A DNA stretch of 4,537 bases from a virus (lineage: Duplodnaviria > Heunggongvirae > Uroviricota > Caudoviricetes), in the IMG/VR virus record IMGVR_UViG_2724679058_000010; one strand, written 5' to 3'. Both the position numbers and the translations under genes were made by a program. The notes under the pieces are model-generated. The model was not told where the DNA came from. It was given only the letters and a program-made list of their open reading frames with translations, and did no database searches. Of the stretch, positions 34 to 4,537 are shown piece after piece (position 1 is the stretch's first letter; every line of letters begins with the position of its first letter).

Positions 34-68
34 GGTTCCCGCACAGGTTCCCACGATTTATGGGAACC
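34..68. promoter_or_regulatory. Perfect inverted repeat GGTTCCCA (46-53) / TGGGAACC (61-68) around a 7-bp spacer CGATTTA, plus a third direct copy of GGTTCCC at 34-40; candidate recombinase core-type site or operator upstream of int
   Basis: Read directly from the sequence. Two 8-bp arms flanking a 7-bp spacer is the geometry of tyrosine-recombinase core sites. It lies 20 bp upstream of the int start codon. No T-run follows on either strand, so it is not a terminator. Confidence 0.4.
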
Positions 69-88: not shown

Positions 89-1186
89 ATGGCGTACTAT
101 AACATAGAGAAACGACTAAAATCCGATGGCACACCACGCTATCGCTGTAATGTGATTATCAAAGAAAAAGGTGTTATCACTTACAGGGAAAGCAAAACAT
201 TCCCTAAACATGCCCATGCCAAAACATGGGGTACACAGAAAGTGATGGAATTAGATCTATATGGCATTCCATCATCAAATGCAGTTGACGGACTTACAGT
301 CCGTGACTTACTACACAAATATTTAAATGACCCAAATGCCGGAGGTAAAGCAGGTCGTACTAAAAGATATGTGCTGGAACTGCTTATGGATAGTGACATC
401 TCCGCGATCAAACTATCCGAACTGACAGAAAATGACGTAATTGAACATTGTAGGCTAAGAAACAACGCTGGTGCAGGTCCAGCAACAGTCAGCCACGATG
501 TTAGTTATCTTGGCAGTGTTCTGGATGCGGCCAAACCTGTATACGGAATTAATTACACATCAAACCCGGCGAAAAGCGCTCGTCCATATCTACTTAAACT
601 TGGTTTGATTGGTAAATCAAACCGTCGTAATCGTAGACCAGCATCTGATGAACTGGACATGCTCATTGAAGGCCTTCAACAACGATCTACTCATAAATGC
701 TCAAAAATTCCGTTCGTTGATATCCTCAAATTTTCTGTGTGGTCCTGTATGCGAATCGGAGAAGTATGCCGGTTACGATGGGAAGATCTCGACCAAGAAC
801 AAAAATCTATACTCGTAAGAGACAGGAAAGATCCACGCAAAAAGGAAGGCAACCACATGAAAGTAGCCTTGCTTGGGGAAGCCTGGGATATCGTCCAACG
901 ACAGCCCAAAAAATCGGAATTCATTTTTCCATATAACAGCACTTCTGTTACTGCGGGATTTCAGAGAGTAAGAAGCAAATTAGGTATTAAAGATCTGCGA
1001 TACCATGATTTGCGTAGAGAAGGGGCAAGTCGCTTATTTGAGGCTGGCTTTAGTATTGAGGAAGTCGCCCAAGTTACAGGGCATCGTTCATTAAACGTGC
1101 TATGGCAGGTATATACCGAACTGTATCCGAAATCTTTACATAATCGTTTTGAAGAGCTCCAAAAGAGCAGAAATAAGACCTCTTGA
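89..1186 (+). CDS. int: Tyrosine-type site-specific recombinase / phage integrase
   Basis: 365-aa ORF with a GAGG Shine-Dalgarno at 78-81, 7 nt before the ATG. The C-terminal region has the catalytic-domain pattern of tyrosine recombinases (LRYHDLRREGASRLFEAGFSIEEVAQVTGHRSLNVLWQVYTEL, i.e. HxLR ... GHxS ... Y), most reminiscent by eye of Rci/XerC-type catalytic domains. Which integrase subfamily it belongs to is not resolved. Confidence 0.88.
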   Translation: MAYYNIEKRLKSDGTPRYRCNVIIKEKGVITYRESKTFPKHAHAKTWGTQKVMELDLYGIPSSNAVDGLTVRDLLHKYLNDPNAGGKAGRTKRYVLELLMDSDISAIKLSELTENDVIEHCRLRNNAGAGPATVSHDVSYLGSVLDAAKPVYGINYTSNPAKSARPYLLKLGLIGKSNRRNRRPASDELDMLIEGLQQRSTHKCSKIPFVDILKFSVWSCMRIGEVCRLRWEDLDQEQKSILVRDRKDPRKKEGNHMKVALLGEAWDIVQRQPKKSEFIFPYNSTSVTAGFQRVRSKLGIKDLRYHDLRREGASRLFEAGFSIEEVAQVTGHRSLNVLWQVYTELYPKSLHNRFEELQKSRNKTS

Positions 1187-1913: not shown

Positions 1914-2192
1914 TCAGCTCCATTCCCGAAGCGGTGTTTCCAGCTCCACGACATAATCAGAGAATACAGAAACATCAAACAAGTCATCAAGAATGCGAAT
2001 GTTGACAAAATAACCATCATTCCGGATACAGACAGGTTCTCCCTCTTCTGTTACCCCTGTTTCTGTGTAGGTGAAACCAATTTCATCAACTAACAGTTTA
2101 TTCTGGAGGTCTTCATCTTCCGCCCAGCCAAGAGATGACAGGAAGGCCTTAAACTGCAGTTTGTCATGAAACTTCAAAGTTAAATCTTTCAT
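1914..2192 (-). CDS. Hypothetical acidic protein (92 aa), translationally coupled to the tail fiber C-terminal segment; possible fiber chaperone/accessory
   Basis: Its ATG (2192-2190) overlaps the stop of the upstream fiber ORF in an ATGA arrangement. The protein is rich in D/E. It has no obvious resemblance to lambda Tfa, which normally ends with a PDIEWPAVP-type motif. Confidence 0.65.
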   Translation of the reverse strand: MKDLTLKFHDKLQFKAFLSSLGWAEDEDLQNKLLVDEIGFTYTETGVTEEGEPVCIRNDGYFVNIRILDDLFDVSVFSDYVVELETPLREWS

Positions 2193-3391
2193 ACGACCTC
2201 TTTTAATTGCCTGTCATTTAATTCTTTATGCCATATGCGGAAATTGCGAATATGGCCAAACAGATGTCGTTCTCCAGTATTCGTCTGCCCTCCAAATCGG
2301 ATATTTTTATCAGCGGTCACGCCATTATATTCACAATAAACTTCATTAACCGCTTTACCATTTGTCACCACATGAAAGTGACCATCAGCTTTTGCAATAC
2401 ATCCAAATGTGGTTTTCTCTGTAAATACATCTGTCGCTGCGCTATTAACATACGAGCCTGAAGGGTTTGACAGACTCATATATAACTTACCACTACCTCT
2501 GTTGATTGCTGCAATTGCTGATTGCCCGGTATTGGCTGCTGCTATATCCCACACGCGGGGTGCGGCGTTTGGTGCAATATCCCAGTTTTTATGAATCTCA
2601 AGTAAAAAAGTAAATGGTAACTTATAAAGATTATTTCTGGTGGGGATACTAACCAAATCACTGGCTCTTGTCGTTGCGCTGCCTCCTGAAATAATAAATG
2701 ATGATACACACGGCCCATTCTCTACTTGTGGGGTGGCAAGATAAATATAGTCACCAGATACTGTTGCCCCACCCTGCTCAGGAGAATACTGTATCTGAGA
2801 GCCTATTTTTAACTCACCATCAATTGCCTGAATCGTTGCCTCTGCAAAAATCCAGCCCGTGGTCTTATCCTTCCTGACTCGTGCCGTAATTCTGCCGGCA
2901 GCACCACCTGTCATATTAATTTCAAGCGTTTGCGTATCAATGTACGCATCGCCAAGAAAAGTTGTTGCACTACCATCATACTTATCAAACCGTATACGTA
3001 ACCTTACCTGTCGTTCTGTTTTAAAACGGCATGAGGTTGTCACGTACTTGTTATCGCCTGAGACATCAACTGACTTTGTTGCAGCAATTGATGCCATATT
3101 AATAGCCGAAGTTTGCCCAACCAGAGAATCGTTGCAGACAAACTTTCCATAAGTAAAACCAAAACTATCCGTCCCGGTTTCGGGCACATCCATGTTTGAT
3201 GACTTCCCCCAGCTGGCTGGACTTTCCGAATTGAGCATGTAGTTCGTTCTTTGTCCCTCAATAAGCAGGCCATCACACTCAAATCGCGGCTCATTAATTT
3301 CCGCCGTTTTCAGTTCGCCAGATTTGTTGATATATGTTGCCGTTGATGCGCGACTGAAATTAACCTGTTTATCACTGGCGACCTGAACCAC
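2189..3391 (-). CDS. Side tail fiber, C-terminal (receptor-binding) segment, with a probable LamG/ConA-like lectin-fold domain at the extreme C-terminus
   Basis: 400-aa ORF. Its frame is open upstream to 3412 (KIAIGDDVV...), and the nearest start is a GTG at 3391 with no convincing Shine-Dalgarno, consistent with a frameshifted continuation of the upstream fiber rather than an independent gene. The C-terminal tail (NIRFGGQTNTGERHLFGHIRNFRIWHKELNDRQLKE) follows the typical LamG closing pattern (F-G-x-I-D-E-V-R-I-Y-N-R-A-L-S-x-x-E-I). Confidence 0.75.
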   Translation of the reverse strand: MVQVASDKQVNFSRASTATYINKSGELKTAEINEPRFECDGLLIEGQRTNYMLNSESPASWGKSSNMDVPETGTDSFGFTYGKFVCNDSLVGQTSAINMASIAATKSVDVSGDNKYVTTSCRFKTERQVRLRIRFDKYDGSATTFLGDAYIDTQTLEINMTGGAAGRITARVRKDKTTGWIFAEATIQAIDGELKIGSQIQYSPEQGGATVSGDYIYLATPQVENGPCVSSFIISGGSATTRASDLVSIPTRNNLYKLPFTFLLEIHKNWDIAPNAAPRVWDIAAANTGQSAIAAINRGSGKLYMSLSNPSGSYVNSAATDVFTEKTTFGCIAKADGHFHVVTNGKAVNEVYCEYNGVTADKNIRFGGQTNTGERHLFGHIRNFRIWHKELNDRQLKEVV

Positions 3392-3405
3392 ATCGTCACC
3401 AATAG

Positions 3406-4251
3406 CTATTTTTTATAGCCCGGAGAAAAACCCGCAATCATATCCAGTGAATCGTTAAACGGTATCCACACATCAGGCAGCGGCGGCACTATATTCGCAT
3501 AGGGCTCTGCAGTCACTTCCGCTGCGGCTTCTGCGCGGTCTGCCGCCTTTTCAGCTCGTGTCGCTGCCGACAGAGCCTCATCCTTTTTCTGCCCGGCCTT
3601 TGTTGCGTCTGCTGCAGCCTCCCGCGCTTTTGTGGTGGCGACTCCGGCATTTTCAGCGGCTGACTCTGCATTACGGCGGGAAGCCTCTTCACTGTCTGCG
3701 GAGGCTTCTTCTGACGCACGGGCATTTGTCTCTGAACGTTCTGCCGCTGTTGCTGCGTTTTGTGCGGCTGTTTTTGAAGAAGCTGCCGCTTTCGCGCTGT
3801 TACCTGCATTCGTCTCTGATGTTTTCGCCGCGTTCCTGGACGATGCCGCTGCTGTTTCTGATTTCTTTGCTGCCGCTGCGCTCTGAGAGGCGGCTTCAGC
3901 GTTGCGTGCCACATCCTCCACCATTACCTCAAAACGACGCAATGCCTCCGGCATGACATCCTCTTCCGTCATGGCACCCAGAAAATCATTCAGCGTCCCC
4001 GGCTTAGAATCCTCATACACGGTGATGGTCCCGGCATGTGAAGGCGGAAAACCTTCAACCAGCAGGATAACGCTGTACTGGCCATACTCGACATCCATGC
4101 TGTAACGTCCGGCTTCATCCGGATTTTCTGAGGCCACCGTGTTCACCACAACCGTGGTGCTGTTACGTTTTGCTTTGAGCTGAATGGTGCAGTTCTGTAT
4201 CGGTTTTCCTGCACCGTCTTTCAGCACACCTGAGATTTTTACTGCTGCCAT
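3406..4251 (-). CDS. stf: Side tail fiber protein, N-terminal anchor domain plus Ala-rich shaft (lambda Stf-like)
   Basis: The translation from the ATG at 4251 (MAAVKISGVLKDGAGKPIQNCTIQLKAKRNSTTVVVNTV...EAGRYSMDVEYGQYSVIL...FPPSHAGTITVYEDS.PGTLNDFL) is nearly collinear with the lambda Stf N-terminus. It is followed by the Ala/Ser/Thr/Glu-rich shaft (AAKTSETNA..., AAERSETNARASE) also found in lambda Stf. The ORF track starts at a GTG at 4257 (MDM...), but the ATG at 4251 is preferred because it has a GGAG Shine-Dalgarno 5 nt upstream and matches the lambda start. Confidence 0.9.
   Translation of the reverse strand: MAAVKISGVLKDGAGKPIQNCTIQLKAKRNSTTVVVNTVASENPDEAGRYSMDVEYGQYSVILLVEGFPPSHAGTITVYEDSKPGTLNDFLGAMTEEDVMPEALRRFEVMVEDVARNAEAASQSAAAAKKSETAAASSRNAAKTSETNAGNSAKAAASSKTAAQNAATAAERSETNARASEEASADSEEASRRNAESAAENAGVATTKAREAAADATKAGQKKDEALSAATRAEKAADRAEAAAEVTAEPYANIVPPLPDVWIPFNDSLDMIAGFSPGYKK
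3409..3414 (-). other. A6 homopolymer (T6 on plus strand) at the frame junction between the two tail-fiber segments
   Basis: Minus strand reads CCG GGC TAT AAA AAA TAG. The downstream frame is offset by -1, so one extra A would fuse the two ORFs. Confidence 0.6.
3486..3900 (-). repeat. Low-complexity Ala/Ser/Glu/Thr-rich coding repeat region (fiber shaft)
   Basis: Protein-level repetition of AAxxSETNA / AAxxAxxAA units. The GCN-rich DNA produces long spurious ORFs in other frames and on the opposite strand. Confidence 0.6.
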
Positions 4252-4262
4252 ATCCACTCCAC

Positions 4263-4289
4263 AAAAAAGCCCGCCTGAACCGGCGGGCT
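4263..4289 (-). terminator. Putative intrinsic terminator downstream of the lom-like gene
   Basis: On the minus strand: 8-bp GC-rich stem AGCCCGCC / GGCGGGCT with a 6-nt loop, followed by TTTTTT (plus-strand A-run at 4263-4268). It lies between the lom stop and the stf ribosome-binding site. Confidence 0.55.
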
Positions 4290-4315: not shown

Positions 4316-4537
4316 TCAGAATTTATAACCGACACCCACGATGAAACCGTCAGTGCGCCAGTCACCACTGCCGGAACCTTCATAAGCAAGGTCAATGGCC
4401 ACGGATTCGGTCGGGTTAAACTGCACGCCAGCCCCCCACGCCAGAGACGTGTTGCTGTGGCGACCGTCATCACTTCCGGTCAGCACATCGTGCGTTTTCC
4501 CCTTGTTGTCAGTTACGCGGAGATAATCCCCGGAGAA
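4316..4537 (-). CDS. lom: Lom/Ail/PagC/OmpX-family outer-membrane beta-barrel protein, C-terminal part (gene continues beyond the window)
   Basis: The minus-strand translation from the window edge ends ...ESVAIDLAYEGSGSGDWRTDGFIVGVGYKF with a stop at 4316-4318. The terminal aromatic residue and the EGSGSGDWRTDGF motif are typical of lambda Lom-type barrels. Its position immediately upstream of stf matches the lambda J-lom-stf order. Confidence 0.85.
   Translation of the reverse strand, partial: FSGDYLRVTDNKGKTHDVLTGSDDGRHSNTSLAWGAGVQFNPTESVAIDLAYEGSGSGDWRTDGFIVGVGYKF

Follow-up and report, generated by a model that had tools for sequence, protein, structure and literature searches.

The window analysed here, i.e., the whole stretch of 4,537 nt, is the left-hand end of a ~43.6-kb lambdoid prophage resembling mEp460, which is located in the 5′ end of Escherichia coli dusA. 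Positions 1–1250 show 100% identity to several E. coli chromosomes, and the int region is matched in 1363 of the 5426 complete E. coli genomes searched, about a quarter of them. In strain SCU-484 (coordinates with the prefix L002), the dusA start codon lies at the base immediately before window position 1, with dusA on the minus strand and divergent from int. The int gene occupies 89–1186 on the plus strand and encodes a dusA-specific tyrosine integrase of 365 residues (Pfam PF00589, E = 1e-20), which is 98–100% identical to the integrases of phages mEp460 and mEp460_4F5. Its codons at 89–265 (plus strand) specify the N-terminal domain, residues 1–59, predicted to consist of three β-strands and one helix and to be followed by a flexible linker; this domain is the proposed reader of the sites described below. 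A Shine–Dalgarno-like GAGG, as read from the sequence, is found at 78–81 on the plus strand, 7 nt before the ATG at 89. The gap between int and dusA, which the two adjoining genes leave at only 88 bp, starts with a phage-supplied leader (1–33) between the rebuilt dusA start codon and the first site. A T-rich block within this leader, TATTTTT at 18–24, is conserved in enterobacterial relatives. A consensus scan of the gap for the int and dusA promoters found no sigma-70 consensus on either strand. At the far end of the prophage, a pyocin activator PrtN family protein is annotated at L002:42816–43097, beside attR.

Three copies of one short motif are located within the int–dusA gap, at 34–68. 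The first direct repeat is GGTTCCC at 34–40 on the plus strand (AGGTTCCCG in context), and the second, GGTTCCCA, lies at 46–53 on the plus strand, 12 bp from the first when measured start to start. This second copy is also the left arm of a palindrome, the right arm of which is the inverted third copy at 61–68, TGGGAACC (i.e., GGTTCCCA on the minus strand). Between these two head-to-head copies lies an AT-rich 7-bp spacer, CGATTTA, at 54–60. The cluster ends 20 bp before the integrase ATG. The initial annotation had described this element as an inverted repeat with 8-bp arms and a 7-bp spacer accompanied by a third GGTTCCC 12 bp upstream, and its sequence and coordinates are exact. It was also right that neither a T-run nor a tRNA is involved: ARAGORN found no tRNA or tmRNA in the window, and consensus scans detected no intrinsic terminator or consensus sigma-70 promoter overlapping 34–68, with no T-run after the palindrome. 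Judged against chance, the 8-bp palindrome by itself is unremarkable, as a perfect 8-bp inverted repeat with a 3–12-bp spacer occurs in 46% of Markov-resampled windows and the real window has four. Three copies of one 7-mer within 35 bp are uncommon, having been obtained in 26 of 3000 Markov resamples. Exact GGTTCCC matches the window three times, always inside the 34–68 cluster, and matches a 49.9-kb lysogen stretch five times, of which four are in the two att arms. The real proof that the cluster is not a product of chance comes, however, from the comparison with relatives.

The three motif copies hardly vary across 73 close relatives, copy 1 being unchanged in 71 of them. Variation in the 88-bp region is found mostly at positions 55–60, and the spacer reads CGTTTTA in 53 of the 73. 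The full palindrome, GGTTCCCA-N7-TGGGAACC, was found in 82 viral contigs, and in 79 of these it lies directly upstream of this int with an extra copy 12 bp upstream, while the remaining three are unrelated hairpins. Thus, the element is not a generic operator standing upstream of unrelated genes, which the initial annotation had considered. A near-identical element in Escherichia sp. MOD1-EC7003 (L087, upstream of int) has both palindrome arms changed alike, to GGTCCCCA and TGGGGACC, with the upstream direct copy still GGTTCCC despite this paired change, suggesting that motif position 4 is tolerant.

The site of strand exchange was mapped by comparing the lysogen with free phages and with an empty locus. 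Homology to free mEp460-group phages stops at L002:1019–1023, ~100 bp left of window position 1. The empty K-12 locus and the lysogen are homologous but diverged as far as this point, past which their sequences are almost the same. At this junction, the mEp460 attP (L004) contains a separate palindrome, TCCTAT-CGAGC-ATAGGA, with the core at ~L004:2493–2509, and the core overlap common to the att sites is TC(A/G)AGCAT. As attL and attR have a core of just 8 bp in common, attR could not be recognised as a long direct repeat and was located by a motif match at L002:44542, where the phage DNA ends with ...CCTATC/AAGCAT... (the slash marks the boundary) and is followed by the displaced native dusA 5′ end. 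The attL and attR sequences, CCAGTCAAGCATAGGAGC and CCTATCAAGCATCGGGGC, both contain TCAAGCAT and represent a semi-conserved att repeat inside dusA at both junctions (compare TCCAGTCGAGCATGGGAGC in PMC6328086). This location agrees with the sequenced junctions of phage 1720a-02 (Balasubramanian et al. 2019, PMC6328086), the int region of which is ~97% identical in DNA to the present one: integration takes place 100 bp into dusA with a 7-base core, and Int is required for excision. Because the junction comparison places the exchange inside dusA, the palindrome at 34–68 is not the core, contrary to the first proposal made for it. It is, as a whole, phage DNA in attP and attL alike, and no GGTTCCC is found within 9 kb of the empty K-12 site. 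The related suggestion that the prophage junction lies at the left edge of the window was correct in that this end of the prophage is close by, but the junction is ~100 bp further left and not at the palindrome.

The same comparison bears on the history of dusA itself. The DusA N-terminus of K-12 (L003:4670–4790) resembles the phage-borne dusA 5′ mimic, and the displaced native dusA 5′ end of SCU-484 (attR, L002:44600–44680) encodes a shorter, different N-terminus, MPAESHTVYPAYRFSIAPML. From these sequences, an element may once have inserted in dusA of K-12 and left the present 5′ end behind as a relic; a tblastn search nearby found no int remnant upstream of K-12 dusA.

With the core placed, the remaining copies of the motif fall into order around it. 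On the distal arm of the mEp460 attP, a pair of copies, GGTTCCCA-ATA-GGCTCCCA, lies at L004:2437–2455, ~45–65 bp from the core, and on the int side GGTTCCC, GGTTCCCA and TGGGAACC lie at L004:2635–2669, ~135–170 bp from the core. The attP in total thus contains five GG(T/C)TCCC(A) copies in a 2 + 3 layout over ~235 bp, as in lambda attP, and the motif differs from the core half-sites TCCTAT and ATAGGA. The lysogen shows the same split, attR carrying the distal pair and attL the three proximal copies. Hence, the expectation that a second copy of the site would mark the other prophage end holds insofar as the motif recurs in attR, but it recurs there as arm sites and not as a core. The broader assignment of the site to the integration machinery is supported. 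Between the distal arm sites and the core, mEp460 also has an IHF-consensus-like sequence with one mismatch (AAACAAATAGTTA, L004:2465–2477), and Yersinia phage YeP1 has a perfect one at the corresponding place (TATCAGTAAGTTA, L005, about 1275–1290); the count of IHF-consensus matches across the mEp460 locus is not above chance.

Elements with other motifs retain this arrangement. YeP1, the Int of which is 69% identical to that of the window, shows the full 2 + 3 layout with the motif GCACCCC. Morganella phage IME1369_02 has three proximal GGACACC copies and a mixed distal pair, GGACACCA and GCACCCCG, and both Klebsiella phage Kp4884-1 and a Vibrio PM2-like (Vinavirales) prophage carry a pair on each arm without the inverted copy. 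A pair on each arm is therefore present in all four of the diverged elements with both arms readable, and their motifs differ (GCACCCC, GGACACC, GTACCCC and others). The types to which these elements belong are unrelated, and their obvious common feature is the int/att module. The layout was further surveyed in 74 diverged loci from species-representative genomes. A C-rich direct pair, 11–12 bp apart and just upstream of int, is found in 68 of the 74. The direct pair together with an inverted third copy is found in 38 of the 74, a few of which are T-rich chance pairs, whereas shuffles gave 1.9 on average and 6 at most. The inverted copy is missing in about half of this diverged family; where relatives have it, its changes parallel those of the direct copies. 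The motifs fall into at least eight classes, including GGTTCCC, GCACCCC, GTACACC, GGACACC, GGATCCC, GTATCCC, GTGCCCC and CTGCCCC.

Marine members of the family (Vibrio prophage 1F53_PE004, L169:70–150; also L139, L141, L147 and L154) carry a second repeat family upstream of int, GAATTNC, which is situated between the dusA mimic and the arm sites in three or more copies spaced by ~10 bp. In the Vibrio PM2-like prophage, a LexA-box-like sequence, TACTGTACAAACATACAGT, is found in the same upstream region. These sequences may be sites for another protein, or may place int under SOS control.

The protein that would read the motif was examined in AF2 models. The integrase is predicted to have an N-terminal domain of three β-strands and a helix at residues 2–58 with a pLDDT of about 90, followed by the flexible linker, a core-binding domain and a catalytic domain, and the best structural matches to the model are full-length lambda Int and Tn1549 Int. 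The motif class tracks Int residues 21–36, which lie in the predicted β2–β3 hairpin of the N-terminal domain. Motif distance is correlated with N-domain distance when the rest of Int is controlled for (partial Mantel r = 0.39, reached in 0 of 2000 permutations). The converse correlation, of the motif with the rest of Int controlling for the N-domain, is negligible (partial r = 0.07, 315 of 2000 permutations). A further comparison is provided by Xenorhabdus hominickii DSM 17903, which contains two dusA-type integrases (L107 and L119). Their motif classes differ, being GTACACC and GCACCCC, and each corresponds to the N-domain class of the integrase concerned. The proposal that the repeats are the site of a host factor was rejected because one strain holds these two elements with different motifs, each matched to its N-domain class.

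Arm-type sites are a classical feature of lambda-type integrases, and in lambda attP the arm-type sites P1, P2 and P′1–P′3 are bound by the N-terminal domain of lambda Int. We propose that the three GGTTCCC(A) copies at 34–68 are likewise arm-type Int-binding sites, forming part of the int-proximal att arm of attP in the free phage and of attL in the lysogen, and we put the probability of this reading at roughly 0.7. It is favoured because the core lies elsewhere, the same motif occurs on both arms and the layout is kept while the motif changes. It is also favoured because the motif tracks the N-domain of an integrase that has a confidently predicted, separate N-terminal β3-α domain and linker. 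Finally, the copies are invariant and the spacer variable among the 73 relatives, and 79 of the 82 viral palindromes precede this int, both of which argue for the same assignment. Int would then bind these copies physically, and recombination would be expected to need them.

The likeness to lambda is considerable: five copies of a short non-core motif are distributed over ~235 bp, two on one arm and three on the int side, and a separate RDF is present. The predicted Int resembles lambda Int in its extra small β-sheet and helix domain, attached at the N-terminus by a linker, and full-length structures align with the model. However, the two systems differ in several respects. The motif is unrelated to that of lambda, and one proximal copy is inverted here, which creates the palindrome. 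The present int is transcribed away from attP, so that the sites lie upstream of it, and ~130 bp of dusA-mimicking coding sequence is interposed between the core and the proximal sites. In addition, the RDF gene lies across attP from int, and the N-domains of the two integrases show no detectable sequence similarity.

Among other explanations, one is that the repeats are bound not by Int but by the PrtN-like RDF (RdfN), in which case they would still be att arms, for excision control and int repression. RdfN, the gene for which lies at the far end of the prophage, is the dusA-specific RDF (PMC8409611), and RDFs are known to repress int promoters overlapping attL (KplE1 TorI, PMC2951348). RdfN could also covary with the motif, since it is only ~50% identical among three phages with differing motifs, about as diverged as the Int N-domain; RDF divergence in these phages is uninformative for excluding the RDF as the reader of the motif. 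However, RDF sites are usually clustered on one arm, beside the core, whereas this motif is found on both arms in a lambda-like 2 + 3 layout. Moreover, the motif diverges along with the Int N-domain to an extent not accounted for by the rest of Int, and integration needs no RDF, so that Int would be left without arm sites despite its predicted extra N-terminal domain. We therefore regard binding by RdfN alone as unlikely.

An operator for a regulator other than Int or the RDF, e.g., a CI-like repressor, would act on the promoters of int and/or the replacement dusA and take no part in recombination. It would suit a palindrome, a shape typical of operators, that is located between two divergent genes only 88 bp apart and ends 20 bp short of the int ATG. 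It would not explain why the same motif recurs on the other arm, at a distance of 43 kb in the lysogen, while no motif cluster occurs in the immunity region or elsewhere in the prophage, nor why the layout is kept in phages of unrelated types, the obvious common feature of which is the int/att module with its RDF. Such an operator, which had been offered for a phage repressor in particular, is thus very improbable. The perfect 8-bp stem with a 7-nt loop, both arms of which change together in relatives in a manner resembling compensatory change, might also be taken for an RNA or DNA hairpin, such as one that stabilises or attenuates the transcript from within the 5′ UTR of int or dusA. However, folding is no better than that of shuffles (z = −0.5), there is no T-run, and Rfam returned no credible family, its sole match being a sub-threshold microRNA model at 134–197, inside int (22 bits, with a threshold of 53 bits). 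A hairpin would also leave unexplained the direct copy at 34–40 and the two distal copies, which change in step, and the inverted copy is missing in about half of the family; we give this explanation hardly any weight. Least tenable is the att core itself: the 8-bp arms, the 7-bp spacer and the position adjoining int do have the geometry of a crossover site, but this is outweighed by the junctions inside dusA and by the K-12 empty site devoid of the motif. The spacer at 54–60 was rejected as the overlap region as well, being the most variable segment in the 73 close relatives when an overlap must match attB. We consider this possibility practically nil.

If the copies are arm-type sites for Int, a lambda-like mechanism can be outlined. 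Each Int protomer would hold an arm site by its N-terminal domain and a core site by its core-binding and catalytic domains, and the bridging of arm and core sites across bent DNA would fold the ~235 bp into a recombination complex. The possible IHF site on the distal arm could bend the DNA between arm and core, and the PrtN-like RDF from the other prophage end would shift the reaction toward excision. An additional operator role for Int is proposed because the sites fill the int–dusA gap and because there is a precedent in KplE1 (CPS-53), where the intS promoter overlaps attL and is negatively autoregulated by IntS and the RDF TorI (Panis et al. 2010, PMC2951348). Int bound in the 88-bp gap would probably dampen int transcription, and possibly that of the replacement dusA too; in a related element, Durand et al. 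2021 (PMC8409611) demonstrated a replacement dusA promoter, the strength of which is below that of the native promoter. Autoregulation by Int through an operator, which was among the original suggestions for this site, would fit its position. As in KplE1, int reads away from attL, the upstream region is an att arm with sites that are putatively those of recombination proteins, and the RDF gene is at the other prophage end. Unlike in KplE1, the integrase family and the target gene are different, and the same region must also drive the rebuilt dusA in the opposite direction.

The locus is a member of the dusA-associated integrase (DAI) elements, for which the int/dusA arrangement was described by Farrugia et al. 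2015 (PMC4482086), PrtN-like RdfN was identified as the excision factor by Durand et al. 2021 (PMC8409611), and phage 1720a-02 is an example (PMC6328086). It shares with them an int divergent from dusA, insertion in the dusA 5′ end with a new 5′ end supplied by the element, a semi-conserved core, and a PrtN-like RDF gene at the far end, across attP from int. A text search of these three papers returned the 21-bp att motif, the 7-base core, the RDF, and the int and replacement dusA promoters, but no arm sites or repeats, and a literature search for dusA plus 'arm-type' gave incidental mentions only. Arm-type sites are known as a kind, and for the dusA integrase family the proposal of such sites appears to be new; its main practical yield is the family-wide collection of motif classes with their corresponding N-domain classes.

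The dusA-specific integrases are widespread and move Stx phages, PM2-like phages and mobilisable islands. Descriptions of the attachment site they use have not, to date, gone beyond a 21-bp core. If the present reading is true, the five-site arm architecture would define the minimal functional attP and would explain specificity between elements sharing one target, and the matched classes would constitute a panel of potentially orthogonal integrase/att pairs. The region at 34–68 is also DNA that probably controls int and the phage-supplied dusA promoter. More speculatively, the diversification of arm motif and N-domain classes on one shared dusA core might be an adaptive insulation between co-resident or tandem elements, all of which compete for that core, so that one would not excise or recombine with another. 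As the proximal sites lie in the control region common to int and dusA, it would also couple expression of the rebuilt dusA, a host gene for tRNA modification, to the Int level. This idea, which we hold only tentatively and think doubtful, is based on the shared conserved dusA core, the at least eight matched classes and the coexistence of two of them in one genome.

The remainder of the window contains several other features. Two tandem LexA (SOS) boxes, CTGT-N8-ACAG, are found at 1189–1204 and 1217–1232 (region 1183–1232), against a chance expectation of 0.09. A promoter-like TTGACA-18-AAAAAT overlaps with these boxes, which are placed after the int stop codon and before a DinI-like gene (1248–1496). 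This suggests that the gene, at the end of the prophage, is a dinI homologue under SOS induction. The side tail fibre gene (2189–4257, minus strand) is split into an N-terminal ORF at 3406–4257 and a C-terminal ORF at 2189–3391, and the matching pieces in SCU-484 are pseudogene fragments in RefSeq; this prophage copy may be without a complete side tail fibre. Finally, the minus strand has a strong terminator-like hairpin at 4268–4289, AGCCCGCC...GGCGGGCT with a T-run after it. This hairpin is situated between a Lom-like ORF (stop near 4316) and the tail fibre ORF (start 4257), and by its sequence matches the pattern of an intrinsic terminator following lom.
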